A stretch of DNA of 64,000 bases from Octopus sinensis (taxonomy: Eukaryota), in contig NC_043025.1 in assembly GCF_006345805.1 (NCBI RefSeq), positions 2,418,001-2,482,000 on the forward strand, written 5' to 3'. Shown piece after piece: positions 1 through 63,556 of this stretch. The position numbers and the translations under genes were made by a program. The notes under the pieces are model-generated. The model ran no database searches. It was not told the DNA's origin and worked only from the letters and a program-made list of their open reading frames with translations. Numbering within the stretch: position 1 is the first letter of the stretch; the number at the start of each line of letters is the position of its first letter.

Positions 1-1250
1 TCATTCCTTCTTCTACAGAGGTCTCCGTCAACCGCTCCAGGATTTTGCTTTGCCGTTGAGGACAGTTCTTTTTTATATGGCCAGGCTCCAAGCACCGATG
101 ACACTTGGGGGAGGGAGGCTCCCTCAAGTATCACCGGATACTTCGACCCGCCTATTCTTAAAAAGTCTGAAAATACCAGACTTTCGGCTGACAGGATCTA
201 GAGGGTCAAAACAGATTTTGACCCCTTCAAGTCAGCCGCAGGCAGAATATTTACATTGAAGAGCTTGGTGCTACTGCCACCCAGACCCCGGCGGATAATA
301 TCTCCTATCCACTCGAGCTAAACTCCGATTGGCAAGCCGCAAAACCAAGCCCTCATCAACTTCTTCCAACAATATGTGGGAAGAAACACAATATCATTGC
401 CTTCCAGGAGCTGGCTCGCAAATTCACAATCCATTTCTGGGGAGTCAAACATCAACCACACGGTTGCATATTTGACCCTCCGAGTGATTAACTTAATAGC
501 TGGTTGAAATTCTGCCATCTCTCTTTCGATTATATTTTTTGAAAACGGCAATGGCGTCGGGGGTCCTAGAGTAGGTCCTCAAACCCACCGTCTTACTTTC
601 AAGTTCTTTTAATCATCTTTTGGGTGGTATAAATTCCCACTCCACCAAATTTCCATTGTTCTTTGCCAGGTTTCTTTTTAAAAAAGTCCAAAAAACACCT
701 CATAAAATACAAAATAATTAAGGAAAAAGAAGGAAGAGTAAAAAGTCCAAACAAAAAAGAAGAAAAAATTAACAGTTCAATAAAGAGTCTTTTTTAAATA
801 AAAGAGGGGTGAAGAGAGAGCAACAGTTCAAAACACAGCAGAGGCCACTCGGTACTCCAGGCCAAAATTTCAACGCAAATCATTCCAATTTTCTTCTCAT
901 AGGTAATCCTTAACAGGAACAATATTGTTGAAATCTTTTCTAAAAATTCCCAGAGTTATTCCTGGACAAATATTATTCTCAGACAAAATTTTGCGGCAGG
1001 ATACGCCCACAAATACAATAATTTTCACAGTTAAGTGAAAAAATATTCACTCAGCTACAGGAAGACTAGAATCCAGTGAGGACTTCTTGTTTGCAAAAAA
1101 TAATTGCGGCAGACAACATGCCCCCACTAGACACCCAAAAAAGTCTTACCTTACAACTGAGTTTCAAAACTCTTCAATTTAAGACGGCTTCAAAAACACG
1201 TCTTTAGTCTTTACTGTTTCAGTATCAAACAAAACTCCGATTCGCTCAGC
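1..1250 (-). mobile_element. Non-LTR retroelement ORF1 (gag-like) remnant with 5' region; paralog of 48263-49745
   Basis: ORF 318-551(-) plus sequence matching the zinc-knuckle-encoding copy at 48820-49098; disrupted reading frame. Confidence 0.65.
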
Positions 1251-1296
1251 ACAATGAGGTAAGCAAGCTACTTACCACACAGCCACTACTGCACTG

Positions 1297-2326
1297 ATTC
1301 TGGTGATGATTTTCAATTTCTTTTTCACCCCAACGTTTGAAATGATGGCAGGAATCTCTTTAAAAGTTGTGTGAATGTTTTGATTTTTTTCAAATCCCCA
1401 ATCCCAGTCGGTAACGATTTTGGCCAATGCTTTTGAATAACGCATTAACAAAAGTTCTAAATGAAAAATTTTGGAAATCGGTGATCACCATTATAATACA
1501 CGCTTTTTTTTCAAACAAAATGTGAAACGTTGTTTGAAAACAATGGCGACATTTTAAAATTTTGTTCCTTAACCTCGCATATTCCCAAAACGATGTTATT
1601 TTCCCAGCAGCTTTTGCATTTTTTGTCCAACTTTAATGAAAATCGACGAGTGAGCAAGGCTCATGGCAGTGAGTTGATTTCAGTATATGACGTTGAGAAA
1701 AAAATTGGTAATTGCGCCGGAGCGGTGGTTTTATAAAATCAATAGACGTTTTATTTGTGGCCGTAAATTTCATATATTTTATCTGATTTTAATGAAATAT
1801 GAAGTGTAGGTAAATGTTTGGTGGGGGATACGGTAAATGTATTTATTTAATTCAAAAGAGCTTGAAAAGGGCATAAATGTACATAAGCATTTCCATACAG
1901 ACATTCTTAACGATTTTGTAGAAATTTTACATGTGATTACAGCTCATGTCCATTAGTTGACACCTACATTAAGAGTTGACAAAAATCGATAACTGCGAGT
2001 GAGAGTGAGATTTAAAAAAAACAATGGGCTTTTTGTGTGCAATTACCCATAGGATTAGTATTTTATGCTGTAACTTTTACACAATTCATCCGATTTTGAT
2101 GAACTTTGACTTTTAGGTAAGGTTTATGGCCGGAGTCATGTAGTAGAATTAATATTAAAATGATGAAAGGCAGAAATCGTCAAAATAATTCAGAATAAAA
2201 TAATGAACTGATTCTGAAGAAAATTGACCAGTGTGTAAAATTAAGCACTTCGACATATAAAACGTCGATTATTTATACAATGTATTGAGATTTAAATGTC
2301 AATGGAATATTTTCATGTAAATGGTC
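1297..2326. mobile_element. Unclassified non-coding interspersed repeat (probable non-autonomous DNA transposon), copy A, right end deleted
   Basis: Clear similarity to ~31850-32885 and 49795-50826; no coding capacity. Confidence 0.6.
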
Positions 2327-2645
2327 AGACGTATTCGTCTTATGTGTTTAAACACATTTAAACATATCTAAACACATAAGAGGTATCACATAAGAGGCAA
2401 TGTTGGATTGCCTCATGCTTATATGTTTTAATCTAGGCGTACCTGCTGATGAGGACTTCGCCTAGCAAATAATTTTATTTGCTAAGAAAATGTCTGAATC
2501 CGTTGTCTAGGAGATAGAGTTAAGTATTTCGTAATTTTCATTCCCTTCGATGATTATCCCTAATTGCGGTTTGGATTTTAGCTGTTCCTTCTGGCGTGCA
2601 GCAAATCCTATGACGGGTACATCTTATGTGTTTAAATGTGCACTG
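2327..2645. mobile_element. MITE with truncated left TIR (intact paralog at 53693-54032)
   Basis: Right TIR gacgggtacatcttatgtgtttaaatgtgcactg followed by TA. Confidence 0.65.
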
Positions 2646-2654
2646 TATTTATAT

Positions 2655-2722
2655 CTAACTATCTATCTATTTATCTATCTATCTATTTATCTATCTATCT
2701 ATTTATCCATCTATCTATCTAC

Positions 2723-2790
<68 letters not shown>
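2655..2790. repeat. (TCTA)n microsatellite
   Basis: Direct reading; paralog at 54045-54178. Confidence 0.95.
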
Positions 2791-3159
2791 ACACATGTAT
2801 ATACATAGTTGAAGTTTACAGAAAAATAAAAGACGAACACAGATATATGAAAAAGGTGTGTATTAGTTTGACACTCCGGAAAGTGTGAAAGGGCTTTACG
2901 TTTCGAGCCTACGATCTTCAAAAGTAAAGAAAATGAGAAAATCACAGAAGTTCAAAAAGGATTAAATGTTCTAGAGTATTGGAGGCATATTTCATTAACA
3001 GATGAGTCCCGTGAGATCCATAAGAATACCCAGTGGCAGTCGGATAGAGTGCAGATATGTAGAATCGGAGAGGTGCAGAAAGATCAGGCAGTAGTAAGTC
3101 CAATATGTAGGTATATAAAGCAGGATAAAATAGGTGCGACCACTTGAGCGTACAATAGA

Positions 3160-3197
<38 letters not shown>

Positions 3198-3710
3198 CAT
3201 AAATATATATGTATATCTATATAAGTGTATGTGTGTATAAAGTCAATGGCGTGTCTGCGTAATAAGAAGCTTGATTTCAAACCACATGGAGTAGTGGTCA
3301 GTGTTAATACGTGCTGCCTTCACCAAGTGTCCAATTCTATATACTCGTGTCGTGAGACGATTTTGTTGTCAGAAACTGAAAGAGGTCTGTCTTATATATA
3401 TACATGGGTGTATGTGTGTGTGTGAGCTTTAATTATTGTGGTTGTAATAGTCTCTGGAGATATTTCGTCCCCGTAACTTAACAGTTCCTCAAAAGAAACC
3501 GATACAATAAGTAACAGACTTTCAAAATTTAAATACAGTGGAGAATATATTTGAATAAAATACCTTCTAGGAGGGTTGCCAGGATAGCTGCTGATTAATG
3601 ACTTGAATAATTGGAAGATAATATTATCTCTATATATATATGTATGAGTGAGTGTATGCGTGTGAGTGTGTATATATGACATATACTGGCATGCATGGGT
3701 ATACGTATGC

Positions 3711-3751
<41 letters not shown>

Positions 3752-4068
3752 TGTGCTTACACACACATACATATATATATATTTTTATATAATTAAGAGA
3801 CAGACCCTCCGTAAATTAATCCAATTAATAATGAAAGATATTATCTATAATAAGATATAAATATAATTATATTATTAATAATATACTAAAACATACTATA
3901 CTAAATTATGCACATTAAATTGACGAGACGCGTTTCGTATCCATATATTTAAATCGACTTTATCAAAATTGATAATCTGAAAAATGAATACATAGCTACT
4001 CTTCAGGTCTAAATAGCATAAAATAAATTTACAACATAAGTGAAGACATCAAAATTAACCCCTTAATT

Positions 4069-4110
<42 letters not shown>

Positions 4111-4229
4111 AATTTAGGCATATAATTCTTATGCACATAGGTACACACTCAATAACGCACACAAATACGCACTCATTCTTACATCCACGCACGCAGACAT
4201 AATGGCACACACACAGACACACCTATATA

Positions 4230-4277
<48 letters not shown>

Positions 4278-4654
4278 TATATATGTATATATATATATAT
4301 AGTAACACGACACACATTCGGAACACAACACACACTTAGTGTGAGCGATATACTTTCATAAAGTGTAGGAAGGTTTACTATGAGAAAAGGAAAGAAGTAA
4401 GCAATTAGAGAGCGAACTATTCGCCTTCTGTCACACAATTTGAAATTTGAAAATTGTGTGGTAATTTTGAAATTTATTGATATATTCGAGAACAAGTTTA
4501 CAAAACACATCAGAGGTTCGAAGTGTTATCATTTTTACCCAATCAGAAAACAAGATTTGGAAGCTAATCTGCTTGTGTGTGAACACTTGTATCATAAAGT
4601 AGAAGTAGGAGATTTTAAACAAAATGAAAGCAATGATTGATTTTTAATTCACAT

Positions 4655-4878
<224 letters not shown>

Positions 4879-5273
4879 GTGTGTATGGCAAATATAAGAT
4901 ACATGGGTAGTGAAAGATATAGAGTGGGAGGTTGAGATCTCAAAGTTGGGTTATTTCACGTGGAGGATTATGATATTTATTATATTTTATGGACGATGTT
5001 TACCTTGGGAATCGGACTTCGGAAAGCAAATTCGTTTTACTCGAGAACGCAATGTTTCAGAGGCTCGCAGGTCTGAAAACATATAAAAAACCACATACAC
5101 CCGTATTTTTATAGTGTATATATAGCGTATGCATTTCTGTATATGTGTATGTATGTATATATATATATGTATGTATATATGTATCTATTATGTATGCATG
5201 TATGTATATATGTATGTGTGTATATTTGTGTGTTTAAATGTATGTATGTATGCATGTTTGTATATACATATAT

Positions 5274-5305
<32 letters not shown>

Positions 5306-5449
5306 AATATATACATATATATATATATATGTATATATAGTAGAAATATGTTATATATATATATATATATACATATATATTAGAAATATGTTACAAGAAG
5401 GAAAAAGAAGATATACGTCGAAATGTAAGGGGAAAATATGAAAAATCAA

Positions 5450-7720
5450 CGAAAATGCACATTGTAAATATAACAAAAAACCTTTCTATGAAAGGTAATG
5501 ACAGATATATACCTTTAGATGGACTGAGGTAGAAATAAGAGTCACAAGATTCATTATTATGAGATGATTAAAGAGTCAGAAAGCATACCATGCTTTCATC
5601 GTAAGCCATTCATTGCTTTGAATGAACACCGGCTAATGAACAGTGTTAGGTCTAATAGTGCCTGAATAAAAAGATTATTTGTAAGGGAGGTCAGTTGTTC
5701 TGGATTTTGTGCAGTAAGGTTAGATATAGAATTTGAATCTGAATTTTGTAAGGAATGTATAGTGGTTTATGGTGTTAATTGAAGGGATAGTAGTGTTCTG
5801 TATTAAGTTGTCTTTATATTCAGTTGGGGAAGATATTTATTGATGAAAATTGCCTATTTAATCAACCTTTGTTGCATTGATGTGTTCTGTGAACATTGAT
5901 AGGTGTGGAAAATTTGGAAATTAGGATTAAGATTCCTAGCACACCTTTCAATGTATTCACTAACCTGTAACAGTCTGTACTTTGGTTGGCGAATTTGTTC
6001 CTTGTGGATGGTGCTTCTTCAACGGAGTGATATTCTTGTTTGTCTAATATAGTGGTTACCACATCCTAAGCATGTCATGGTATAGATTAGACTTTACGAG
6101 TATCGGGTGAACTTTGAATTGATCTTAAATATTTCCTCTTGTTTAAAGTGGATTTCTGAATCCTCCAAAAGGTTGGGACATGTTCCACAGGTGAGACGAC
6201 CACACTTTTTCTCTTTTGGCTCTGTTGTTAGTAGATATTGTCTTGCGCTGGTTAATTGTTTTTCAATGATTTGGGTTGTAGTTTGCTTTTTTAAATTTTG
6301 TATGAGCTTAAAATTTCGTTCGTTGTTTTGTCTCCTGTGAGGATGGGAATATTTTGGGTGATAAAATTGAAGGCTTCGTTGTTTCTAGGGTTATGTGTGG
6401 AAATGTACGGGAGTATTTTTTAAGTCTGGTTTAGTATTTCGTCTGGCATGCATTAATATTTGTATATCTATTTCCTTAGCTCTTTTAATGTCTTTTAGTT
6501 GGTGTTGATCTAATTTCAAGGAGTCTTGTTCACGACTATATGTATCCGAAACTATGGTACGGATTCTTTTCGCTAGATTAAACGGTGTATTAATTTTTAT
6601 GTGTTTGGGGTGTCAAACAATATGTATTGTTTAGAATCTGTGGGTTTATAAAACATGTCTGTTTCTATGTGGTTATTAACTATTTTAATTAAGATGACCA
6701 GAAAAGGGAGTTGTTTACTGTTGTGTTCCATAGTGAATTGTATATTGCTATGTATGTTGTTAAGCATTACTTTCAAATCAAGGAATCTGTCCATGCTGTA
6801 TTTCCAAAGTATGAAGCAATCATCCAAATACCTCATCCAGTTCTCCTTTAAATATCAATTAAAAGAGGCGCCAATAATTTTCTAGTGATGATTGGTATAA
6901 CTTCAGTTCTAGGTAACCCATTTCAAGGTTTGAAATCACTGGAGTAGCTCTGGTTTCCATTGCAATTCCACATTTTTTCGATAGTAAGTTGTATCGAACA
7001 TGAAATAGTTGTTCAGCAGGATGAATTTGAGTGCTTCGATTATGATTCTGTGGTTAATGCGTCCTGAGATCTCTTCTGGGTATTTTTCTAGCCAGAATGT
7101 GATTGTTTCTATACCAGAGTCGTGTGGGATATTGGTGTACAGATTCACCACATCGAAAGATACCAGCAGCGTTCCTTCCTTTACTGTATTCGGGCGGTGG
7201 TTCAGCATGTCTAGGTCATCCCTGATAAAGCTTTTCACATATTTTTAAAAAACGTTTTGAGTATGATGTCGAGGAAGTTGCTCAAATGGTGGGTTTCACA
7301 AGAAGGGCTAGCTATGAGAGGTCTCAGTTTGAGGTCAGTAGGGGGAGGGACATTAATGCATAGGCTTGTAGAGATTTTGCAGGCTTCACAAATGTGTGGA
7401 TTTTTATGTATTTTGGGTAATCCGTAGAATAGACTAGGACTGTATTTAAAATTGGGTAAAAAGTCTATTTCAATGTTAGTGAGACCCTTTCCATGAATTT
7501 TGAGTAAGGAGGGCAAGTTTTTCAGTGTTTACTCTGTGTGGTTATGTATTAATTTCTCATAGTAAATATTATTTTCCAACATGGAAAGTGTTAAATATTT
7601 GTAGTATTCTGTATTCACCACTACTACCGCACTTCCGTTGTCGGCTTCTTTGGAATATCTTGAATTTCGAATTTACGAGGCAAAATTATTGGTGTAGAGT
7701 TTAGCCAGCGTTCGTAGATT
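5450..7720 (-). mobile_element. Penelope-like element, degenerate RT plus GIY-YIG region
   Basis: FYGLPKIHK...LRPLIA (7235-7516), LVSFDVVNLYTNIP (6936-7238), RYLDDCFILW...FYKPTD (6597-6836), and a CGRLTCGTC linker near 6180-6205; frameshifted. Confidence 0.9.
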
Positions 7721-7902
7721 TCTGCCTTGTGGTTGTTTTTAATCGTGTATCATCTTGTGTATCATCTATAGGAAGATTTACCAGTAGCACTCAAGAGCAT
7801 CCTCACACAAAACACACACGCACACAACACACACACACACACGCACACATACACACGCACAAATAGATATATATATTTATATATATATATAGATATATTA
7901 TG

Positions 7903-9013
7903 TACAGGTTACAGTAAATATAGTGTCGTCTTAATTACGCAAAAATGATAAAAACACTGAGATCCCATTTTAACAGGTATATTTACCAAAATAACAGAAA
8001 AAATATCTTGAAAGTAAATGTCTTCAATAAAATCGCTATTGGCGTCAACCACGTCTTCCGGTCAGATTCGGAATTACCTGCAACTCTTTTGGACGGTCAC
8101 CTTGTTTAATTTCGTGAATACTGCCATAATCCTTGTATTCAGTTTATCTTTGATATTACAAGGGGTTTTGCTGACCTCTCAGTCAACTGCGCACTATGCA
8201 TGATAATCAAGATGGTTCCAGTTTGGGGAGTTAGATGGCGTGACTTTAGGGGTGATGTGGTCGAAAAATTTGTCTGACAGCCATGGCTGGGTTCTGCTGG
8301 TTGTATGTCATGGTACAGAGTCTCCCTGATAGAGATAGGATCTTCCAGCAGCCACCCCATTGCTCCAGGGAAGCACGACCATCTCCAGGCACTTGATGTA
8401 GACCACCGTCTGAAAACTATTTCTTTACTACCAACAAGGGGCTAAACACAGAGAGGACAAACAAGGACAGGCAAACGGATTAAGTCGATTACATCGACCC
8501 CAGTGCGTAACTGATACTTATTTACTCGACCCCGAAAGAATGAAAGGCAAAGTCGACCTCGGTGGAATTTGATATCAGAACGTAGCGGTAGACGAAATAC
8601 CGCTAAGCATTTCGCCCGACGTGCTAACGTTTCTGCCAACTCGCCGCCTTAATTCTGAAACCGTGAATGAAAGCATAATTTCACCATCACAACTGATCGT
8701 TCCAAACACCATGATGTTGACTGGATGCTTGATTTTTATCAGTCGGAGTACATGTCCTCGGATTGAACATTCCTCAGACTGACACCCAAACACTCTGGAA
8801 TGTTCATATTAGATCTTTCGGCGCGAATGCCAAGCAGTACAGCATGTCGTTTCCAAAGTTTCTGGCAGAGTGAATTACGCCATGGTGCTGTTTTTCTCAC
8901 AGACGGTAGCCAACTGATCATACTATACTGAGTGGTCGACAAAGTCAAAAACAAAGAATGCGCATGCGCGAAATTAAAAAGGTAATGGTGGCAATTTCGT
9001 GTTGCAACCTGTA
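7903..9013 (-). mobile_element. Tc1/mariner-superfamily element, internally deleted, interrupted by a SINE
   Basis: Terminal TACAGGTT.CA-like inverted ends; transposase remnants KRHAVLLGIRA...ECLGVSLRNVQ (HTH) and IKHPVNIMVFGTISCDG. Confidence 0.75.
8420..8651 (-). mobile_element. tRNA-derived SINE (octopus-type)
   Basis: Minus-strand head aaggcggcgagttggcagaaacgttagc with a decayed B box (atcaaattcc), followed by the gtcgactttgcctttcatt...gggtcga body. Confidence 0.75.
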
Positions 9014-9162
9014 TATATATATATGTATACACGATTAGGTGTTGACATGAATGTGATATAGTATTTTCTACTGTATTCAGTCCCACTGCGTGTACTCTGG
9101 CTTACAGCACAACAAACTCGTGTATATTTGTTCAAGGTAACTAAAAGAAACCCATCGTATAC

Positions 9163-10016
9163 ATACAAAGTGGAATCGTAATGTTCCTGGATGAGTTATG
9201 TTTAATAAAACTAACTTATATTAACTTCATCTCCTTCGGTAATGTCACCTTGTGCAGGTATACACCGCCAAGCTTTTCGAATACACCCGATCCAGCTTTC
9301 TTGACACTTTTGGTATCCGGCCTCTTGAGGACATCTTGATCTCAACAACGGTGTTAAATTTCCTATTGATCACGATCTTTGTACCGTATTTTCTTTTTGT
9401 GGAAGAGATGGAGGTCACCAGGTGCTGAATCTGGCAAAAAGGACATGCACGGAAGCGATATCATGTTGCTTTTGGCAAGAAACCCGCGAGTGTGGTGACA
9501 GAGTCCATTGTCGTCGTGAAAAATCCAATAATTCGCGCACCACAAATCCAGTCAGTTTTCTCGAATGTCATCCTTGAAAAGCTTTAAAATGTCGCAGTTG
9601 ATCCCTCATTTGGACTTGGGGGTCGAATTCTCAATGCACAACCCGATGATGTAGAAACAATATTGAAAATTCGCTTGATTAAGTTGTCATTCTGTCGTGC
9701 ACCTGCGCACTCGAAACATTATGTACGACCCATTGTCTCGTCGCTATAAGTTTACCGATGCATGCTCCATCTCTCTATAGCAGACTTTCCAATTTTTACG
9801 CAAAATTTCATGTTGGTTCTTTCGTCCATACCCGTCCTGTTCATACACGTCTTCACAAAAATACAAATTCCACATCGTGCGATGTATACACATCGATGTT
9901 ACTCAGCATGCTACTTCCTGAAGGATACTGCTCGCTATCACCGTGCTTACAATTGTGTGCATCCAAGCGTTGGCGCGCAGTAGAGTTTGTCCGTGAAATT
10001 TTGATACAACCGCGTA
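9163..10016 (-). mobile_element. Mariner-type transposon remnant
   Basis: WIFHDDN...FLAKSNMISLP..FLPDSAPGDLHLF (decayed HDNA and YSPDLAPxD motifs); TIR-like ends next to TA. Confidence 0.8.
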
Positions 10017-10323
10017 TATATATATATATATATATACATATATATACAAGCAGTAATAATTGTCGTCGATCGTGTAATTCTACTGTTTCTCGGGACAAAA
10101 AACTAGAAAATGGGTATTTCATATAGAAAAATAGCTTTACGGTATCCAGGTCCACTATTTATGGACAACCTATAATTCGGGATTGAGAAATTTGAAAATG
10201 AAATTCGTAAGCAATCATAGATAACCACATACACTTGCATTTATACATACATATATGTATTTTTATGTGTATATATATCTGTATGTGTGTGTGTGTGTGT
10301 GTGTGTACGCGTGAGTGTGTGTT

Positions 10324-10363
<40 letters not shown>

Positions 10364-10843
10364 TTGAGTTGTGGGTATCGCACGAGTGGAATTATATACG
10401 AAAAAGGTTTGAAAATTTAAAAGATGTTTATTTACTTAACCGGTTTCACTCTTTGGTAAAGATTGTCAAAAGTAACATTGAATAATATGGGTTCAAAAAA
10501 GTTTTTTACATAATTGTCACATTGAATATTATGAACTCAAAATGTTTTTTTATACATAATTGTCACATTACATGTATAAATATAGTGTTTGGTAACAGAG
10601 AAGTTCAATAGTGTGATGAGAATATTTGGAAAAATTGGCAGAAAAGAATAAAATAAATATATTATTGCAAATTTGGTTGCGTTAATTATTGGTTGTCGCA
10701 AATTGTCACATTACATGTATATATATATACAGTCTTTGGTAGAAAGGACATGTTAAAGACACAAGGAAGTGCAATAGTTTGGTGAGAAAATTTGTAATAT
10801 TGACAGAAAAAATGGATATTTTATACATCTCAGAATATTTTGA

Positions 10844-10956
10844 GTTGAAGGCGAGAATTTGTTTTTACTGACCTGTTGGCTTTAGCAGAAAAGTTGAATT
10901 GAGAGAAAAAAATGTTGTTCCCAACAGGTCAGTAAAAACAAATTCTCACCTTCAAC
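10844..10956. repeat. Near-perfect 36-bp inverted repeat (foldback)
   Basis: gttgaaggcgagaatttgtttttactgacctgttgg (10844-10879) versus ccaacaggtcagtaaaaacaaattctcaccttcaac (10921-10956); one mismatch. Confidence 0.9.
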
Positions 10957-11416
10957 ACACACACACATATATAAATGAACGCAATGAATATCTGATTCAT
11001 AATATTTGTTCTCATGATTGTGTGGTGTTTGTAGCGATGATAATTCTCCCTATGACTGCCGACAGATACATCAAAGAAAGCCGTCTGACGACCTTATAAA
11101 GGGAAAGTGAAAGGGAGTTGAGGGGAATACATTAAATAACGGGAGTGGACATTGTCAACGTTATGAATGAAGGGGAGTAAGAGAGGGAAAGGAGGAAATA
11201 ACGTGAGTGAGGATGATGGCACCTAGCAACCACACCTTTTAAGATAGGGATCTCTAAGGTAGTCCACGAGCATCGTACCCTCATTCTACATGTCCCTGTA
11301 AATTTTGGAGCGAATAGGACGGGTCGTAGTGGCATTGAAAGCAACCCAAGGGGTAAAAACGCATTTCAGTTTTATATATAGAGAAGATATATATAAATGA
11401 ATCAAATAAACGTCCA

Positions 11417-11648
11417 AGGCTGTGAAAGATTTCAGAACATTTATAGAGAGGTCTTCCAGCTGTTCCAGGGATATTTTATATATCCTTTCATCGAAGACGG
11501 TGTGCGAAAATGGTTAAGCAATAGTTTTTCTAGAATACCTATTGCTTAACCATCTTCTCGCAACGTCTCCGATAAAGAGATACATAAATATCCCGGAAAC
11601 AGCTGTAACGTCTTCTCTTTAGAAATGTTCTTAAATCTTTCACAGCCT
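11417..11648. repeat. ~110-bp-arm imperfect palindrome, probably inverted Penelope pseudo-LTRs
   Basis: Arms 11417-11524 and 11539-11648 centred on TCTAGA; each arm carries a decayed hammerhead-like core. Paralog at ~59212-59443. Confidence 0.75.
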
Positions 11649-11879
11649 ACATTTTATTTCCTTCTGTTAATTTTATACATATAGATATTAAAATATGACC
11701 AACGTTGGACTCCTCATTTGCATGTCCATAGCACTTACTCAGCTTTCACTCACACATTTGGTTCTCCTTGACAACATTACATCTCATATCCTATATATAT
11801 ATATATATATGTATGTATATAGTAGTAGTTGTAGTAACAGAAAAGAGGAATTTCGATTACCCCCACGTGGTGAGGTGTC

Positions 11880-12735
11880 ATGTATATAAGAAATTAAAAA
11901 AGGAAAATACGCACACTTACATACTTTTAATATAATTTTTCATATATTGACCGGTTTCGATATCGCTATTCATGATATTATATTTTACTTATTTGAATAT
12001 ATATTTTTTCTTAGAAAGAAATTTTGTCCATGTTATGTGTGATGAAATTCAGGAATGAATGACTTCACAAGTGGATAAGTAAAGGGCGGTTATTGGTTGT
12101 CGTTATTCATGTTATTGTTGTGGGTAAGGGAGATAACGGTTCAACTTTCGGTAATGGGTGCGGATTATATAGGAGTACAGACAGACAAGTTTCAAAAATC
12201 TTGTTTAGTAGGGGATTTATGTACAGTGATGTAATCGTGAATTGAAATATATAAAAAGATAACAGTTGGCGTTTACGTTGGCGTTAATATTAAGGCGTTT
12301 TCTTGTATTTTTCAATGAAAAAAGTTTCTTTATTTAAACGCTCTAGTTGAGAGATTGCGTCTTTGCACTGGTAAAAAGGGAAGAGTTTGGAATTTGGTTT
12401 GATGTTACCTGCACATGTTTCTATATGTTCACTGAAAGAAATTTGTCTGTATTCCGGGAAACGGATTTGCCCTTTATTTAGAGTGGTTCTCTTTCTCAAG
12501 GTCATACTCGTTTGTCCAATATAGTGGTGTCCTCAACCCGAGCAGGTTATTACATGAATTAGGTTTTCAGATGCACAAGTGAAACTAGTTTTAATTGTGA
12601 ACCTCTGTCCTTGTTTGAAAAGTAAGTCCGAGCCTTCAAGCAGGTTGGGGCAGGTTTCACAGTTTGGGCGTCCATATTTTTCAACCGTTGGTTTTTTGGT
12701 TGCTTTGTAAAGCTTCGCGTTTGTTAGTAGTCTGG
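11880..12735 (-). mobile_element. Penelope-like element 3' fragment (GIY-YIG endonuclease plus terminal repeat)
   Basis: YGRPNCETC...ENLIHVITCSG*GHHYIGQT..TLRKR...ERLNKETFFIEKYK; GAAACCGGTC motif on the minus strand near 11949-11960. Confidence 0.8.
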
Positions 12736-13639
12736 ATCCCATCAGACACATCGATAAAGTTGTGTGTGAGTAAAGATTTCGAGGGTCATCTGGCATGTTG
12801 TTATATTGCCATCTAGTTGGGGAACGAATAAAATACAAATAAGACTGGAGACATGCAACATATTCAAATATGATCGTGGAAGTCTTGCGTTCCTCTTTAG
12901 ATAAAGTGACCTAATGAGCTTTCGCTTTCATAACTGCTTAGAGGGAAAAGAAAGTAGTAGAAGAGAAAGAAGAAAGAAAAGAGGGAGAAGAGGAAAACGA
13001 ATACTCAGTCAAAAATAAATGTAATTATTGGAGATCTTATTTCTTGTCTCTCTGCAGTGGAGATCTTATTCCTTGTCAGCCGTGTATACCTCTGTTCCGC
13101 ACTCTGAGATGCTCTGGCCTTTTCGTAGTGCACAGTCTGTTCGTTTCTTGGTATGATTCCCTTTCTGCAGCTGTCTCTCTTTCCCTGGACATTCTTTTGG
13201 CTTTACCTTGACATTGTAGAAAAATTTGACATGGTTATACAGAAATACACGGGTGCAGAAGATAGTAAACAATGAAAATAACTGGGTAACGAAAATTATA
13301 TTTCTTAATACGACAAGCAGAACATTAACAAGATAGTTTTCCGGACAATAAAGAATTGTACGTGTTGAAGCGAAATTTGTTACTAAGTGAACCAAAGTGC
13401 CAGTATCGAAGGAACCAGAAATAAGCCATTAACAACACATAAGCAAAAAACCGGCGCAAAAGTAAATAAGAAATTTTTAGGGAAATTAACTATGTGCGCG
13501 GGTTTAAGTGAAATGTTTGAAGTTACTCCTGTCAGTAAATTATGAACTTACTTTTATCAGTAATTCCTTCAACAACAACAAAAAGAAAACACAAAACGTT
13601 GCAAAAGTAAATAAGAAATTTACCGAAGTGTACGGATTG

Positions 13640-14480
13640 AATTGGAATTTATGAAGTTACAGCCTCCGGGAAAATCAGCAGAGAAATAGAAAGATTCCAG
13701 CATCTCACCTCAACCTTTTCTTTCCAATGTCTTTAATGACTGCATCAGCGATCCCTTTCTGCTCGTTGGTAAGGGTTGCAATGAGTGGGTGGTTCATGTC
13801 ATCTTTCTGCTCAACCCGTTACATTCCAATTGGTACAATCAAGCTAATATTAAACCAGCTGGTGCCATTTTCAATAAACACAGAATTTATGGAATGTAGA
13901 GTTTGCATTCAGCCCTCGGTGATCATAATCTTCCATCATAGAATTCTTGTCAGTATTCCACAGGCGAAGAACATTGGAAGAATTTGAATAGGTGCAGAGG
14001 ACAGCAAACGTAATACGCAACTGAAATGTCATCCGATTCGCAGTAGCTTCAAGTATAGTATGCTCCAAAACCTCATCATTTTGGAGGAGACCAACTCATA
14101 TGTACGCATCTTTAAATGTTGCATAGGTTTCACCTCCTACAGTGCTCACTTCTCAAAGCGCTCAGCACCTGGAACATACAAAATACCAATTTTGAATAAT
14201 TTTTTTTACGTCCTTAAGGTTTTCAGGGTGCAGTTATTTCATTGCAAGGGGAAAAATTGTAGCGCCTTATATAAACCGTTCTTTTGAAACGTATTTCACA
14301 CTTTCGTAATTGTACATTTTCACACCTGGCACTTCCAATCTCTTGTTGTTCAATTATGTGCATGTTCCCATATAACTCAGCCTAAGGATTTACTTGTTGC
14401 ACATGACACCCATTCTTTGAGAAGAGCTTTGGGAGTTCTGACTTGCTTCCACTCTGCGATGCATAAATAATATACAACTG
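13640..14480 (-). mobile_element. Helitron Rep/helicase remnant, internally deleted
   Basis: QLRITFAVLCTYSNxSNxLRLW..DKNSMMED (Rep-helicase linker), decayed F.D.PGG Walker-A approach near 13660, and an N-terminal NPYAELY-like segment. Confidence 0.75.
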
Positions 14481-14539
14481 ACTGTACTGCAGGTGACCAT
14501 TGACAGTTCGTAGTGTTGTGCGAAGTTTGGCACTGAATA

Positions 14540-17500
14540 CGTTCTATATACTGGTATTGGATATATAATTTAACGAAGCTGTTTACACGACGCAATACGA
14601 TTACTATTACATGAGACTCGACGCTCTCTGCCAACGGATCATAGGGAAATGCTTACCAATCAATTGTTCACAATCAATTGCTTACGACTAGACAGTTCTC
14701 CATGTAATGGAAATGTGTCAGACCACTTTTAGTCAGTTGTAATGTTGTCAGAATCTTTCCACAGCATATCCCCTTTATAGAATTAGTCTCCCCTAAATTC
14801 TCCACTTGAGAATTAAAGTCACTCAGAGTTTTAATATCTCTTATGCTTAGGGCTCAATTCTTGTTTCCGTTCTTTTCGTTTTCTGGTGCTAGAACGTGTA
14901 ATTGCAAATTGTTTCTGTGCTGGTACCTCAAACGTGTCGTGCAATACTTTCATGAGAAATTCACTTCTTTTGTCTGATTTTTCCTTGAATCAGGTTTTAA
15001 GTTGGTTAATAAGTCTTTTATGTTCGATATTTGTTTTACCTTTTACCAGGAATATCATTCTTGCAATTTATTTAACAATTGTACCATCCTCCCAGCCTTG
15101 TTTAATATATGTATAGTTCTTTAATAAAGTTTGTCAGCTAACTTGAAGAATTTTGAAATATTATTCCTTTTTTTTTAATTTTCACTCGGTATCGGCTGAT
15201 CAAAGATGGATCTGATTATTCTAACAAACATCAAATATCTTTGTAACCAGAGATGTTTGCTTTCTACATTTATGCACTTCAGACCGTGTTGAAAAACATT
15301 CCCCAACAACGAAGTGACATGAAACCTTAAGTGGTTTTGGCCACGGGTGCCATTTCGTGACGGGTGTATTATGAGCTAGAGAACAGCGTATTGCATACTA
15401 TCACTATATCTTCAATGTTACAGTCCGTTGTTGGCCAGTATACCTAACTTCTCATTAACGATTTCATTATTGAAATCCCTTTGACTCAATATGAAATTCC
15501 TTTAGTAATTGCTTTTGTAGTGTGGCTGGCACTACGACTCTTTGTGCATACATCAGCACATTGTCACACCTTGTGATAGGCTCGAATATATTTTATCTCT
15601 TTTACCCTTTTGCATTTCTTTCATTTTTTAATGAATATATCGTTTCCCAATTGTAATTTCATATCTTGTAAGGTAAATAGCAGTTCACGCATGGAGTTAT
15701 ACCGTTTGCTTTTAATTTCATTTTCCATTCGCAAAGTAGCAATCACGGTATCTTCAAATGGTTCAGCATTATCTGAAATCTGTCTTGATAAACAATTACC
15801 GTGTCCTAATTATTTAGATGGTATATACTCTATCTTAAATTCATAGTTTAATGATACAGGACCACAGCGTTGCAGCCTATTAGCAGTACGGCTAGATATT
15901 TATTTCTGTTACTCATATACTGATAATAACGGACGATGATCTGTCTGTATTCAAAAACTTCTGCCGTGTAAAAATCTATGCAATTTTTACGGCAAAAATA
16001 ATTACAAGAGCCTCTTTTTTGATTTGGCTGTAATATTTTCTGCTGATATCAAGAACCACCGCCTTCATGTTACCATCTTTTTATTTATGTAGCATTAGTG
16101 CGCCGATACAGTATTCAGAGGCATCTGAAGTTACAACATTCTCCTCTACAGAATCGAAGCGTGCTAACAAATCAAATGTTAATACTTTAAAATTTCGTCG
16201 AATTCCCTTTGACAATTTTCAGAGCAATTTCAATTGACATTTTTTAAATACATAATCTACTGTAACACTTACCCTATGCATATTGAGAATAGGATTTTGG
16301 TCATAATTTGCCTTTCTCCAAAGCAATCATGTAAGGTCGTCATATTTGTCGGAGGGGCATGTATTTAATTGCGTCTGCCTTCAACGGATCTGGTCCTCGT
16401 CCATTTCTTTCAATTTTATTTTCGGTATTAAAAAAATTGACGCTTTCTTTTTCAATGTAATCCCTAATTTCTTCGAACATATATATTACTTGCTCTACAT
16501 GGTGATCCCGTGATTCGCATTTAATGAGTATATCATCCAGATATGGAAATGCAAATTTACTATCGCTAACAGTGCATCCATAAGCTGTTGAAAAATCGGT
16601 GTGACATTAAAGACATATAATAACCTGTTGTATATATATATATATGCGTTACGTTTTAGGTATTTATAGCATTCATCGTCTACGCTAATATGTAGGCACG
16701 CGTCGGAGACATCCAATTAAGAAAATACCTTGTGGAAAGTTTTAAGACACTCATTTAAACCAGTGGAAAAAATCAGCATACATTCTGATTTTGTTTATTT
16801 GTTTCTAACGCTGCAAAAGTTTATCTGTTCCCACGATGCAAAAGTTACAGTTCGTTTATATTTAAATACCGGTTTGGCATTTACTTTTACTTGGAACTTC
16901 GTTTTTGTTGTGATACTGAGATCTAATTTATCAGAAAGAACTTCAGGAAAAATCTTTTAAAATTATTTCTACAAATCGTCCGACGATTCATTTGTATTGG
17001 CAAGAAAACCATTCACATTTTTACTGAAAAGATTTATGGGGAGTTCCAATAAGTTAAGCAATTCTATTCAGTGTTCCGAATAATTTTGTGATATCTTTGG
17101 TTTTTAAGGTTTTCCTACGAAATGGGACGTGATTTATCATTACACCATTAAAATGTAATTATTTTCCTGAAACACCACCTACAATTTTCGAAATGTCTTT
17201 TAATCTAGGAATTCTGTTTTGTTCTATGTATCTGTGTTAATTATCGAGATATCACTGCTCTTATCTAGTTGCAACTTTACGTACACAAATTTCCTTTGAG
17301 GCTGTTCGTTTTTTGGTCACCGATAACCTGTTTTCGTGTTTTCTTTCTGTTGAAATGTTTTCCAGGTTTGTTCTACAGTGTGATTTTTTATGATCTCTCT
17401 TGCCACATTTGACTCCTTTTATATTTTTAAACGGGCAATTACTTTTAAAATGTTGACCACCGCACCATAAGATTGATTCGATCTTGACATTTTTTCTCTT

Positions 17501-18820: not shown

Positions 18821-19350
18821 TTAATAGGAATATGTCAGTACCATTCTAGTCAATTGGAAGGTGGTCGGAATCCTTCCACAAAAATACAGAAACAACGTAG
18901 ACCTCTTCCTTGCGGCAGAGAGAGTTTCACACGAAATAACGTAAAGGAAGATATGCAGTTGTAATTGCTGATGATTTTTTTCGAAATGAAGCAGACTCTT
19001 GGTAATTTTCTCAGACAAACGCTTCAATGTCTGAGGGTTTAGTTGCAGTGGAGGAAAATTCCCTTTCTTATTGTGACAGTAAAATGAAGTTTTCATATTT
19101 AAAGTTCAGTGCACCACAATACTCGCAATATAAGTACATATCACCAATACGATAGGTTCGTTTAGGATTATTGTGTCTGTTCAGTGGTAGTCCATGTCTT
19201 CCTTCACGCTTTCGTTGCACCTGTTCAACTCGCAAACGTAACGCCTGTTCAGCATTCATACTTGCAACTCCATCTTGATGTCTCTCTGCTTGACCTTGGA
19301 GACAAGCAGCCCTTTCCAAATCATCCATATTCTCCCTTCTCTGTTACATT
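18821..19350 (-). mobile_element. Helitron N-terminal remnant
   Basis: IGDMYLYCEYCGALNFKYE..YCHNKKGNFPPL resembles the Helitron CxxCxA...CC..G zinc-finger region. Confidence 0.65.
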
Positions 19351-22150: not shown

Positions 22151-22578
22151 ATCTTCAGCGCTATCATATATATACTCCTTCTGCTAATAATATTTTCGTA
22201 TTCACTAATCGTTATAATTTATCATGTCATCATAACTATTTCCTTCCCTCATTTACTCTGCTATTTCTAACATGCAGAATCATCATCTCCTTCGTTATGA
22301 ACATCATAATAATCAACGTCGTCATCATCAATTAATCGGTAGCGTTTGTCATCGTTTTCGATAATAATCATCATCATTTTTCCTTCTCACCGTCATTATT
22401 ACATTTACAATCAACATCGCAATCCTCCTCCCCCTCATCATCATCATCAACATCATCTCAGCCATTTTCTCCTTCACCGTCCTCTTTTTTTTAATATGAT
22501 TCTAAAAATACATGATTTAATGTTTTATAAGAAATCTTTTTAATACTTTTTTCTTTTGAATTGTGTTTTATGTTTCAG

Positions 22579-22650
22579 ATATCTCTATCATAATAGGATC
22601 ACAACCATCCAACAAGGATCCTTTCAAAATTTTCCAAGTTTGCACACATT
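22579..22650 (+). CDS. Single internal 72-nt coding exon encoding one typical-class leucine-rich repeat of a large multi-exon host gene
   Basis: Pyrimidine tract plus tttcag acceptor ends at 22578; gtaagt donor starts at 22651; length is exactly 72 nt. Frame a|TAT CTC TAT CAT AAT AGG ATC ... CAC ACA TT| reads YLYHNRITTIQQGSFQNFPSLHT(L), fitting (L)xLxxNxIxxIxxxxFxxLxxLxxL. Both introns are phase 2 and there is no stop codon. Confidence 0.88.
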
Positions 22651-23349
22651 GTAAGTTGGTTAAGTTTTTGATATTATTTTATTCATGAATATTTTTCTAG
22701 GAAATTAATGTATTGTCATCTTCCTTTTTCTCTCTCTATCTCTAACTAATGTCCTGCTACTATTTTCATGTTAGAGTGTGTATGAAGATGTCAATGAGTG
22801 TTTGTGTCTCTATGTGACTGCATTAATGTCTAACATTTTGTGTATGAGTGTATGATTGTACGTGAATATGTATGTTTGCATTTGTGTCTATAGGTGGGTA
22901 TATTATGAAATATATATTTATGCAGAGTTATACTCACTACAAGAAAAGAAAGTATAGAAATATATTCATCCTCACTTTTTTGAGATACTGGTTCAATAAT
23001 ATGAGTTATTTTAAACTCTACAATTACATGACGTGCTGAAGTTGGTAGTCGTCATTTTCTATTTGTACAGTGAGCTACAACTGGGGCAATTTGGTCAAAC
23101 TGTCCAGTGTGATGGCTGCATATGCCGTTTCAATTTCTTTAGGAAGGATGTTAATTTAGCTAGTCGTCCACAACATAAAACAACGTTTGGTGTGTCCCTC
23201 GTACGTTCGTGTCTGTGTGTATGTCTAATAATTTTACTTATGTTGATATATTTTTTAAATCATTTCTATTTTCTTGTTATTGTTTTGCTTCTCCATCTTG
23301 TCAGTTTTCTTCCTACTTATATTACTTTTTCTTCATCACAGACTTCTTC

Positions 23350-23767: not shown

Positions 23768-23801
<34 letters not shown>

Positions 23802-42690: not shown

Positions 42691-43138
42691 TCACTGTGTT
42701 CATTCTGCTGCCGATGTTATTGTTTCTTCTCCCGAGTGTTCACGATCGATCTGTTTTTGAGTAGGTTACTGAGTGTTACCTATGTGAAAGCACAGTCTCT
42801 CACCGTCCTTATTACAACATTTACCATCAACATCGCCATCCTCCTCCCCCTCATCATCATCATCAACATCATCTCGGCCATTTTCTCCTTGTTGGTGTTG
42901 TTGTTGTTGTTATTGTTGTTGTTCTTAACATAACGAAATACATTATAATCGAACCGAGTGAAAACGAGTTTATTGAGCGAGGTGCTTTTTGAAACGTCAA
43001 CTGACGAGAAACATCTGCAAAGAAAGATGCACCGCGGCCAATCGACCATTATCTCATCCGTGAGTGGCCGATTGAAGACGGGTTGAAACGGCAGTAATGA
43101 TTAATGTATCACGTAGAATCCATTTTCCATTTCCGTCA

Positions 43139-43180
<42 letters not shown>

Positions 43181-43341
43181 TGTATGAGTGTGTGAGTATA
43201 CGCTTCGACGTTGGTATGGTTGTGTGAAAACAATTTTGCTTCCGTATTCTGTCCCTCTGCGTGTACTCTGGTCTTCAGCCGAACAATCCCGTGTATGTTA
43301 GTTAATTGGATACAGGGTAACTTAGAAACATGTCGTATATA

Positions 43342-48262: not shown

Positions 48263-49745
48263 TTTTTTTTCCCAACAGAAAAAAAACGAGGTATTGAACC
48301 TCTCACTACAATTTTTACAATTCTTGGACTTAATAGTCCATAACAAATAATAACATACAATAATATACAATAAAATATTCAATATACAATCAACACTAGT
48401 CCATTTACAAATGAGGCACTGAGCTTCTTACACATTATAAAACTGGGGCTTTTCAACCTCTTGTCAATCCTCATTATCGCTTGTGTACGTCCACTTCACC
48501 ATATCCCCTGCGATATTCCTCCTTTAGTCCCCCCCAGCCTATGTAACATGCGCAACGTTATGAACTCCACAGCTATCTGCGGAGGCCATTCGGGTTACCG
48601 TGCGAAGGCCAAAGGTACTCCCTTGTAGTGTTCTACCACCATCTTTTCCACCACTCCCCTCTATAACAGAAGGCCAGCAGGTCTTCTTCCTCCGGGTCCG
48701 AGATAGTAAATTCTATCGTTGGCGGCACAATTCTTACCGATTGTGTCTAACCCAACCCTCACCGATGGGGCATCATGTCTCCGACTGTCGGCAATATCCT
48801 GTTTCTCCTCTTCTTTTTTCTACCTGACTGTGGGAGGGTGCGTCCCCTCCGTGACCGGGACATATGCTTCCCTTCCCTCATTCCCAGAATCCTTCGGTGA
48901 GCACCCATTATTACTCACCTTCTTCCTTTTGCAGCTCTTCTTTGAGGCATCCTCTGTCTCCTCGGCCGCCTTCATTCCTTCTTCTACAGAGGTCTCCGTC
49001 AACCGCTCCAGGATTTTGCTTTGCCGTTGAGGACAGTTCTTTTTTATATGGACAGGCTCCAAGCACCGATGACACTTGGGGGAGGGGGACTCCCTCAAGC
49101 ATCACCGGATACTTCGACCCGCCTATTCTTAAGAAGTCTGGAAATACCAGACTTTCGGCTGACAGGATCTAGAGGGTCAAAACAGCTTTTGACCCCTTCA
49201 AGTCAGCCGTAGGCAGAATTTTTAGGAAGAGAAAAAAGTCTAAACAAAAAGGAAGAAGAAAAAATTAACAGTTCAATAAAGAGTCTTTTTTTTAAATAAA
49301 AAAGGGGTGAAGAGAGAGCAGCAGTTCAAAATACAGCAAAGGCCACTCGGTACTCCAGGCCAAAGTTTTAACGCAAATCATTCCAATTTTCTTCTCATAG
49401 GTAATCCTTAACAGGAACAATATTGTTGAAATCTTTTCTAAAAATTCGCAGAGTTATTCCTGGACAAATATTATTCTCAAACAAAATTTTGCGGCAGGAT
49501 ACGCCCACCAAAACAATAATTTTCACAGTTAAGTGAAAAAATATTCACTCAGCTACAGGTAGACTAGAATCGAGTGAGGACTTCTTGTTTGCAAAAAATA
49601 ATTGCGGCAGACAACATGCCCCCACTAGACCCCCAAAAAGTCTTACCTTACAACTGAATTTCAAATCTCTTCAATTTAAGACGGCTTCAAAAACACGTCT
49701 TGAGTCTTTACTGCTTCAGTATCAAACACAACTCCGATTAGCACA
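48263..49745 (-). mobile_element. ORF1-only zinc-knuckle retroelement, internally deleted
   Basis: CHRCLEPVHIKKNC in ORF 48820-49098; ~550 bp of 3' sequence ending in a T8 run on +; lacks the equivalent of ~250-730 of copy 1. Confidence 0.65.
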
Positions 49746-49794
49746 TGCATAATGAGGTAAGCAAGCTACTTACCACACAGCCACTCCTGCACAC

Positions 49795-50925
49795 GTTCTG
49801 GTGATGATTTTCAATATTTTTTTTTCACCTCAACGTTTGAAATGATGGCAGGAATCTCTTTAAAAATTGTGTGAATATTTTGATTTTTTTCATATCCCCA
49901 ATCCCAATCGGTAACGATTTGGGCTAATGCATTTGAATAACGCTTTAACAAAAGTTTTAAATGAAAAATTTTAGAAATCGGTGATCACCATTATAATCCA
50001 CACTTTCTTTTCAAACAAAATGTGAAAAGTAATTTGAAAACAATGGCGACATTTTAAAATTTTGTTCATTAACCTCGCATATTCCCATAACGATGTTATT
50101 TTCCCAGCAGCTTTTGCATTTTTTGTCCAATTTTAATGAAAATCGATGAGTGAGCAAGCCTCATGGCAGTGAGTTGATTTCAGTATATGACGTTGAGAAA
50201 AAAATTGGTAATTGCGCCGGAGCAGTGGTTTTATAAAATCAATAGACGTTGTAATTTTGGCCGTAAATTTCATATATTTTATCTGATTTTAATGAAATAT
50301 GAAGTGTAGGTAAATGTTTGGTGGGGGATACGGAAAATGTATTTATTTACTTCAAAAGAGCTTGAAAAGGGCATAAATGTACGTAAGCATTTCCATACAG
50401 ACATTCTTAACGATTTTGTAGAAATTTTACATGTGATTACAGTTCATGTCCATTAGTTTAAACCAGCATTAAGAGTTGACAAAAATCGATAACTGCGAGT
50501 GAGAGGGAGATTTCAAAAAAACAATGGGCTTTTTGTATGCAATTACCCATAGGATTAGTATTTTATGCTGTAACTTTTACACAATTCAACCGATTTTGAT
50601 GGACTTTGACTTTTAGGTAAGGTTTATGGCCGGAGTCATGTAGTAGAATTAAAATTAAAATGATGAAAGGCAGAAATCGTCATAATCATTCACAATAAAA
50701 TAATGAACTGATTCTGAAGAAAATTGACCAGTGTGTAAAATTAAGCACTTCGACATATAAAACGTCGATTATTTATACAATGTATTGAGATTTAAATGTC
50801 AATGGAATATTTTCATGTAAATGGTCAAATGGGCTCAATTTTATGACATAACCTTACCATATTTGTTCGTATTTCGCTGAGAGTGGACACACTGATCAAT
50901 TTTGTACCGAGAGTGACATTAAGGG
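49795..50925. mobile_element. Unclassified interspersed repeat, copy C
   Basis: Near-identical to 1297-2326 and extends further to the shared right end. Confidence 0.6.
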
Positions 50926-51159
50926 AAAAGAATTAAACAGACATCACTCAATGTGTCCACGAACACCCAAACGTTTCACTGCGATTTCAGACGGTCCAGT
51001 ATGGAGGAGTATGTCCAAAGCGTTAAGCGGGTAAAATTCCTGCCGAATCAGATATAACATCATAATTGGTAACAGTTGGTAGAGGGAATGTAGAAGATTT
51101 CAATACAAAGCCAGATGTGGGTTTAACTTCAACACGGAAAACACGAGCAATATATATAT

Positions 51160-51420
51160 GGAGGCACAAGTTCTAGTGGTTAGAGCAGCAGTCTCACGCT
51201 CGAGGAATAGCGGGTTCGAATCTCAGATTATGCGATGTTTGTTTATGAGCTGAACACCTCAGCTCCACGCGGCTCCGGCGTAAGGTAATGGTGAACCTCT
51301 GCTGACTCTTTCTCCATCACATACTCTCACTCTTTCCTCCTGCTTCTCGCAGCTCACCGGCAAAGGTGCGGCGTTCCGTCCCTTATGAGACAGGCATAGC
51401 TCGAGAATGAACAAACAACA
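51160..51420 (+). mobile_element. tRNA-derived SINE
   Basis: A box ctagtggttagagc and B box gggttcgaatc; ends in an (AAC)-rich tail flanked by TA repeats. Confidence 0.7.
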
Positions 51421-51904
51421 ATATATATATACTATTTATTAATTTAATGGACACAGTACATGACTTTAAGTTCAGTTTCATAAGTGGAGGGATATCTCAA
51501 ACATATACACCAGGCACAAACAACATATCATTACGAACTAAAGAAAAATGAATAAGAGAAGAAACTTGAGAAAACTGAGAATACAGCATATAGAAAATGT
51601 AGTAAGTTAAAACAAAAGAAAATGAAAACACACAAATCTAAAAATTAAAAAGTAGAAAAGGTGAAAGTGTAATCCTCCTTAGGCCTTAAATTAAAGGGCT
51701 AGAAAGATTACAAAATGTTAATAAAGAATAGGTAGCGAACTTAGTAGCTTTGCTTGTGTCCTTATGTCGGAAGGAGGCTACGTGTTTAGCATACCGATTT
51801 TTAAAATTATACTTTTTATTTACGTATGTATGTGTATATAAGTATGTATGTATGTATGTATGTATGTCTGTCGCTGTCTCTCTTGCTCTATCTATCTATC
51901 TCTC

Positions 51905-53580: not shown

Positions 53581-53692
53581 CTATCTATCAATAATTAACA
53601 ATAACAGGGTAATAAAAAGCTTAGAATTTTTACTACCAGTCGCCTAACGTGTAAAAAAATTGTCAATAGCCTATATATTAATTATATAAATG

Positions 53693-54032
53693 CAGCGTAC
53701 ATTTAAACACATAAGACGTATTCGTCTTATGTGTTTAAACACATTTAAACATATCTAAACACATAAGAGGTATCACATAAGAGGCGTTGTTGGATTGCCT
53801 CATACTTATATGTTTTAATCTAGGCGTACCTGCTGATGAGGACTTCGCCTAGCAAATAATTTTATTTGCTAAAAAAATGTCTGAATCCGTTGTCTAGGAG
53901 ATAGAGTTAAGTGTTTTATAATTTTCATTCCCTTCGATGATTATCCCTAATTGCGGTTTGGATTTTAGCTGTTCCTTCTGGCGTGCAGGAAATCCTATGA
54001 CGGGTACATCTTATGTGTTCAAATGTACACTG
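53693..54032. mobile_element. MITE with ~34-bp TIRs (Tc1/mariner-like ends)
   Basis: Left cagcgtacatttaaacacataagacgtattcgtc versus right gacgggtacatcttatgtgttcaaatgtacactg followed by TA. Confidence 0.75.
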
Positions 54033-54046
54033 TATTTATATCTAAC

Positions 54047-54104
<58 letters not shown>

Positions 54105-54105
54105 C

Positions 54106-54178
<73 letters not shown>

Positions 54179-54542
54179 CACATGTATATACATAGTTGAA
54201 GTTTACAGAAAAATAAAAGAACACAGATATATGAAAAAGGTGTGTATTAGTTTGACACTCCGAAAAGTGTGAAAGGGCTTTACGTTTCGAGCCTACGATC
54301 TTCAAAAGTAAAGGAAATGAGGAAATCACAGAAGTTCAAAAAGGATTAAATGTATTCAGTTTATCTTTGATGTTACAAAGGGTTTTGCTGACCTCTCAGT
54401 CAACTGCGCACCACGCATAATAATATATATATAGGTGTGTCTGTGTGTGTGCCATTATGTCTGCGTGCGTGGATGTAAGAATGAGTGCGTATTTTTGTGC
54501 GTTATTGTGTGTATACCTATGTGCATAAGAATTATATGCATA

Positions 54543-54587
<45 letters not shown>

Positions 54588-54634
54588 TAGCTGAAGGTGA
54601 CCCGCTCTACGCGCGGGTAAGAGTGTGGTTGTTA

Positions 54635-57570: not shown

Positions 57571-57578
57571 GACGAAAA

Positions 57579-59589: not shown

Positions 59590-59620
<31 letters not shown>

Positions 59621-61790: not shown

Positions 61791-61849
61791 CTGACTGTAC
61801 TGCAGGTGACCATTGACAGTTCGTAGTGTTGTGCAATGTTTGGCCCTGA

Positions 61850-63518: not shown

Positions 63519-63556
<38 letters not shown>

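Follow-up and report, generated by a model that had tools for sequence, protein, structure and literature searches.

The closest published analogue of the exon described here is the LRR exon arrays of brown-algal ROCO genes. In the available text of that report, each LRR is encoded by one 72-bp phase-2 exon, the exons are duplicated in tandem, the concave face of the repeats is under positive selection and an immune role is proposed (PMC11378527). The products are intracellular ROC-COR GTPases for which alternative splicing is reported, and the same text mentions that 72-nt phase-2 exons occur in gonadotrophin receptors too (PMC11378527). The octopus exon resembles the ROCO exons in encoding one repeat per 72-bp phase-2 exon and, in the comparison with three sister exons, in an excess of change on the concave face. 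It differs from them in belonging to an animal, in encoding a typical extracellular-type LRR and in being part of a module of about 47 kb; no ROC-COR domain was seen with it.

The VLRs of lampreys and hagfish provide another point of comparison. According to the accessible parts of two sources, they are built from typical LRR modules and vary on the concave beta-sheet, as the octopus exon does (PMC3900441, PMC13428168). In their case the mature gene is put together somatically, with donor cassettes copied in by a gene-conversion-like process (PMC3900441, PMC13428168). The octopus modules carry splice sites and their sisters appear to be spliced in tandem, features which, judged from sequence, point to ordinary splicing rather than VLR-type assembly.

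In octopus itself, LRRs have been described in 5 of the 22 group-3 adhesion GPCRs, which form tandem clusters and show branch-level positive selection (PMC6408891). Expression of these receptors is seen in the axial nerve cord, the suckers, the skin and the gills, with enrichment in the first three; a sites test returned no selected residue, and a role complementary to protocadherins was proposed (PMC6408891). The available text of that study describes neither exon modules nor selected sites (PMC6408891). In the portion available of a 2026 review, FREPs are named for molluscs, and no diversified family of receptors is attributed to cephalopods (PMC13428168). LRR proteins are listed in octopus mucus in the accessible text of another study, where they are not tied to the family of this exon (PMC10138644). 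We found no description of hypervariable LRR exon arrays in octopus in the literature searched, which was mainly open-access.

In other words, exons that each encode one repeat and have a concave face under selection are already known from brown algae, as are LRR receptors of variable sequence from jawless fish. The window analyzed here, a stretch of 64,000 nucleotides from Octopus sinensis (NC_043025.1, positions 2,418,001 to 2,482,000), supplies the size of the duplicated unit, an exon-less relic of that unit, a link to a gene model in O. vulgaris and a measurement of face against intron divergence.

One LRR exon in the window

The exon occupies positions 22579..22650 on the + strand. It comprises 72 nt that encode one 24-residue typical LRR, is in phase 2 at both ends, and has an open frame reading YLYHNRITTIQQGSFQNFPSLHTL. 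It is preceded by a T-rich acceptor tract (22545..22578, +) that ends in CAG at 22576-22578 (AG at 22577-22578), and followed by the consensus donor GTAAGT (22651..22656, +), where reading on into the intron immediately gives TAA. The initial annotation had reported canonical splice sites, 24 codons, an LRR match and no stop, all of which were borne out by the sequence and the LRR profiles. The Pfam LRR_8 profile matched the exon with an E value of 2.4e-4 and 21.2 bits, which is under the curated cut-off of 27 bits and is the score of a single repeat against a 61-position model. Typical LRRs of the extracellular type have the segments LxxLxLxxNxL and FxxLxxL, and the exon has both within its 24 residues. 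The end of the exon and the donor together spell TTG TAA (22649-22655), and the O. vulgaris gene model discussed below ends at the same place, so that intron retention would halt the protein at once and yield a short soluble form.

The two strands of the window together offer 315 open 72-nt candidates bounded by AG..GT, and of these only this exon has the strict LRR pattern in register. In 300 simulated windows, no such exon arose, and the strict motif appeared only 13 times anywhere in the six frames. With an HMM built from 1,500 repeats the exon scored 28.7 bits, compared to 6.6 bits for the runner-up in the window and 6.2 bits for the best match in the reversed window. The exon is thus the only LRR exon of the window and not a product of chance. 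The runner-up, an LRR-like match at 42150, was dismissed: its score is at the null level, and it lies within a repeat shared with 13660-14216.

A tblastn search of the window with 10 octopus LRR and adhesion-GPCR proteins revealed no further exon of the family and no GAIN or 7TM exon. Two minus-strand matches near 60.7 kb from this search were weak (E 0.15-0.30) and contain a stop, and were taken as chance. Nor was there any sign of a signal peptide, a cap, a membrane anchor or a signalling domain, and the product is described as a putative extracellular receptor on account of the type of repeat.

Protein relatives

The exon frame was searched against 1.84 billion representative proteins, giving 503 matches, of which 150 were listed. 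The closest among the 150 listed was CAI9744556.1 from Octopus vulgaris, identical at 21 of 24 positions; the next had 17/24. CAI9744556.1 is a 151-aa model named, wrongly, as a kinase. Its final 24 residues are the 21/24 repeat, another LRR stands before them, and the end of the model coincides with the in-frame stop that the intron supplies after the window exon. Of the three differences between the two repeats, two fall on positions 4 and 6 of the face. The model captures only two LRRs behind a low-complexity N-terminus, which is probably a prediction artefact, and the gene is, in effect, unannotated. Upstream of the exon, the window contains an AG..GT segment of 46 nt (19110..19155, +, phase 1 to 2) that corresponds to an upstream exon of the O. 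vulgaris model, with 16 of 17 residues identical over a match at about 19106-19156. As an exon, 19110-19155 is probably a prediction artefact as well, but the match ties the O. vulgaris model to this type of locus. A word-index search with both LRRs of CAI9744556.1 led to no longer protein (four candidates, none of them scored), and among proteins of near length it retrieved only the model itself; both results are weak evidence.

The remaining named top matches were LRR proteins of amphioxus, mussel and O. sinensis, with identities of 13-16/24. The exon matched the repeats of three octopus records (P0190, P0005 and P0153) at 14/24 and the mussel and amphioxus LRRs at 16/24. P0190, from O. vulgaris, bears the name adhesion GPCR G6-like and has LRR, GAIN-type and 7tm_2 matches, and an O. 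sinensis LRR protein links to octopus LRR records as well as to adhesion-GPCR records. At an identity of 14/24, membership of the window exon in the adhesion-GPCR group is a possibility that does not follow from the repeat. The model of one O. sinensis relative, XP_036369864.1 (P0005), is a typical LRR solenoid with strands on repeat positions 23-24-1 at a spacing of 24 residues. In P0005, P0153, P0154 and P0155 the LRRs precede a segment that also occurs in adhesion-GPCR records, and the proteins end without a 7TM. The database names attached to these four, which seem to form one family, are inconsistent (TLR5, SLITRK4, Slit, LRRC15). Among PDB sequences, the exon matched generic LRRs, with a designed protein on top and decorin, VLRs, LGR4 and Slit2 also present.

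These results bear on the gene to which the exon belongs. According to the initial annotation, it is internal to a very large LRR gene on the + strand with one repeat per exon. This reading gains support from CAI9744556.1, which pairs the 21/24 repeat with a second LRR, and from intron-less 72-nt repeats in contigs labelled as RNA. We also agree with the annotation that one repeat does not assign the gene family. Its lead towards LGR/RXFP/GRL101 or Slit proteins fared less well: none of the 10 matches looked up by name (of the 150 listed) was an LGR, and the sister exons are hypervariable, which would be a misfit with a conserved hormone or guidance receptor.

Sister exons and the predicted ligand face

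Eight of the 18 listed sequencing runs from the same species were compared with the exon at 80% likeness; these runs are presumed to be RNA. None of the eight had a contig at least 99% alike over 22579..22650. Five (X1, X10, X9, X8 and X15) had no contig on the exon at all, and relatives were found in the remaining three. The initial annotation had proposed reads spliced at the two ends of the exon as a check, and for this exact exon the eight presumed-RNA runs contained none. Exact matches are not to be expected for a hypervariable family in runs made from other animals. A look-up with 11 words sampled from 22545-22690 listed no RNA data set containing them, a blank that does not count as evidence.

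Four contigs from two runs (X5 records 3, 4 and 6; X7 record 3) repeat the exon core with a 72-nt period and without introns, which is the form that LRR exons spliced in tandem would take. Several different sister repeats follow one another on single contigs. A further contig (X4 record 2) is paralogous and unspliced, and matches the exon together with its flanks (22480..22695, +), with 19 changes in the exon and 7 listed changes (at most 11) in 144 flank bases. It has a depth of 2.4 and is the sole sister exon anchored in intron sequence. The downstream intron is likewise matched by a paralogous contig (23068..23321, +), with 13 differences in 254 bases and one 14-nt insertion. Phe18, an unusual residue at this position, was considered as a mark of decay and discarded, as spliced sisters have it too (X7 record 3, X5 record 4).

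The face of such a repeat is formed by the six x positions of the consensus LxxLxLxxNxL, which here correspond to codons 22, 23, 1, 3, 4 and 6, or 18 bases. Counted by hand, the differences between the window exon and the three complete sisters amount to 14/18, 12/18 and 9/18 face bases, compared to 5/54, 2/54 and 3/54 of the other exon bases (Fisher P 8e-8, 9e-8 and 8e-5). All six face residues are changed in each complete sister, whereas the other residues are changed at 3/18, 1/18 and 2/18 positions. These comparisons of raw counts have the window exon as their common reference, and two of the sisters, the spliced ones, were found through the conserved core, a bias that favors a face-concentrated pattern. 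The change falls into two segments of the exon. The 5' variable segment (22580..22597, +) holds face codons 1, 3, 4 and 6 between a near-constant L2 and a constant N5, and the 3' variable segment (22643..22648, +) holds face codons 22 and 23. The repeat core between them (22598..22641, +) is near-invariant, with 0-3 changes across the three complete sister exons.

In the intron-anchored sister from X4, the face substitutions are Y1I, Y3R, H4E, R6Q, H22S and T23F. Its face differs from the flank with P <=2e-10, while the non-face part of the exon does not differ from the flank (P 0.31-0.77). Divergence of the paralogous introns is 5-8%, and that of the face is about tenfold higher. Variable x positions are usual in LRR proteins and also occur within each of four octopus proteins; the unusual feature here is that these positions differ about ten times more than the adjacent intron. 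For this reason relaxed constraint is ruled out as an explanation, as the face codons exceed the divergence of the intron rather than equal it. The concentration of change on the face points instead to diversifying selection on the predicted binding face.

Two other sources of the variation were also considered. RNA editing was set aside, because only 2 of the 19 exon changes in X4 are A>G and the X4 contig is unspliced. A patchwork derived from old donors is unlikely, because the silent sites that separate the variable codons do not vary: in all seven readable sister starts, codon 2 has the same third base as in the window exon, and Asn codon 5 is the same throughout.

Duplication and loss of the module

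The initial annotation described the exon as lone. Within the window this stands, as there is no second LRR exon; what had been overlooked is a colinear duplication of about 48 kb and an exon-less remnant of the module. By self-alignment, positions 1..17075 (+), which are the intron upstream of the exon, are repeated in direct, colinear order at 48972..64000 (+). The two copies align in 9 chained pieces totalling 7,762 bases, with 340 mismatches (4.4%) and offsets of 46-51 kb, and each copy bears private insertions. From the register of the duplication, a twin exon is predicted at ~69,500 (69,504), beyond the window end. As no second family exon lies inside the unit, what was duplicated would be one exon with about 47 kb of intron, and not a whole gene.

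The remnant (42798..43322, +) is ~10% diverged and joins segments corresponding to 22385-22474, 23361-23389 and 23538-23929, so that the left flank of the exon is joined straight to its right flank and the exon is absent. It is older than the ~48-kb duplication, and its existence means that modules get lost too. Simple repeats are found at the ends of its deletion or close by, a hint that exon loss may be guided by microsatellites.

With a duplication of its surroundings, a relative in O. vulgaris and related repeats in RNA-labelled contigs, the exon is not an orphan by descent.

The private insertions of the two copies include one of 5,164 bases in copy 1 (2970-8133) and one of 2,886 bases in copy 2 (50828-53713) with reverse-transcriptase fragments. 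Such kilobase insertions, differing between copies, could serve to order recent transposon activity.

Proposed mechanism and alternatives

We consider it probable that the exon is live and forms an internal module of an extracellular recognition protein built of LRRs, in an array that grows by duplication of units of one exon plus intron (about 47 kb) and with a face under strong diversifying selection. The symmetric phase-2 ends would allow units to be gained or lost without a frameshift. Duplication would provide a new repeat, and selection would then rewrite its face, leaving the core, the splice sites and the intron nearly unchanged. The splice junction is predicted to fall inside a beta-strand, so that each face would be contributed by two exons (positions 22-23 of one; 1, 3, 4 and 6 of the next). 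Neighbors would then share each face, and any reordering of exons would make a new surface. By analogy with the brown-algal ROCO arrays and the VLRs, a ligand of foreign origin, from microbes or parasites, seems most likely, and the face would then be engaged in a host-pathogen arms race.

The same anatomy and the same selection could also serve self-recognition or a wiring code, that is, cell-surface adhesion in nerve or skin rather than the sensing of microbes. This we regard as unlikely, even though LRR-bearing group-3 adhesion GPCRs (5/22) belong to a group that shows enrichment in axial nerve cord, suckers and skin and, in the available text, is proposed to complement protocadherins (PMC6408891). 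The fold neighbors of the related octopus protein XP_036369864.1 do include the neuronal adhesion LRRs LRRTM2, FLRT and NGL, but such a likeness of fold is common to all typical LRRs. Moreover, a face that diverges about ten times faster than the intron is more typical of conflict with a foreign ligand that keeps changing than of a wiring partner that is stable. More distant still is an ordinary conserved receptor exon of the LGR/RXFP/GRL101 or Slit type, which we judge very improbable: 72-nt phase-2 exons are indeed present in gonadotrophin receptors, according to the text available (PMC11378527), and LGR4 and Slit2 are among the PDB matches, but those matches are generic for LRRs, with a designed protein first and decorin and VLRs included. 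Many young sisters with hypervariable faces, together with a recent duplication of the unit, do not fit a single-copy receptor.

A further alternative is a copy that is silent or newly dead, either no longer spliced or kept only as a donor for gene conversion, and we think such a fate doubtful. The exact exon was seen in none of the eight presumed-RNA runs, the introns are about 47 kb, and the neighboring module copy at 42798-43322 has lost its exon, so modules die. Against this, the splice sites are consensus, the frame is open, an intact and near-identical exon exists in O. vulgaris, and Phe18 also occurs in spliced sisters; the absence from the runs is that of a hypervariable family sampled in other animals. 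An assembly artefact, in which two haplotypes were placed end to end and the sister exons would be alleles, might be suspected in so repeat-rich a region, but hardly accounts for a divergence of 4.4% with several private kilobase insertions in each copy, or for several different sister repeats in tandem on single contigs. Even between alleles, divergence restricted to the face would need selection. We hold the chance of such an artefact to be slight.

Beyond the live module that we favor, it is conceivable, if rather speculative, that the locus belongs to a cephalopod repertoire generator, in which dozens of interchangeable LRR exons over hundreds of kilobases would be combined per cell by mutually exclusive splicing or somatic conversion. 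If this were true, each exon pairing would be a new binding site, and octopus would have independently evolved a VLR- or Dscam-like system. On the preferred reading of a live, selected module, an LRR array with a ligand face that changes about tenfold faster than the introns of the same array is a concrete, testable candidate for pathogen or self recognition in octopus. The locus also indicates that exon duplication works with units near 50 kb. Units of this size would keep such genes hidden from annotation, as exemplified by the public model, in which two repeats appear under the wrong name of a kinase.

Transposon-derived sequence in the window

The surroundings of the exon had been described as transposable-element debris, a description that holds as far as tested: 7 of the 18 long ORFs scanned match Pfam, all of them to Helitron/PIF1, reverse transcriptase or zinc-knuckle families. 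Two broken Helitron-type elements, at 27459-30812 (-) and 57798-58349 (+), were recognized by PIF1, Helitron_like_N and Pif1_2B matches. In addition, a 67-nt unit is present in 3.4 tandem copies at 56205-56593, with a related copy 1.6 kb upstream (54655-54959); this unit presumably resembles an octopus SINE-type repeat.
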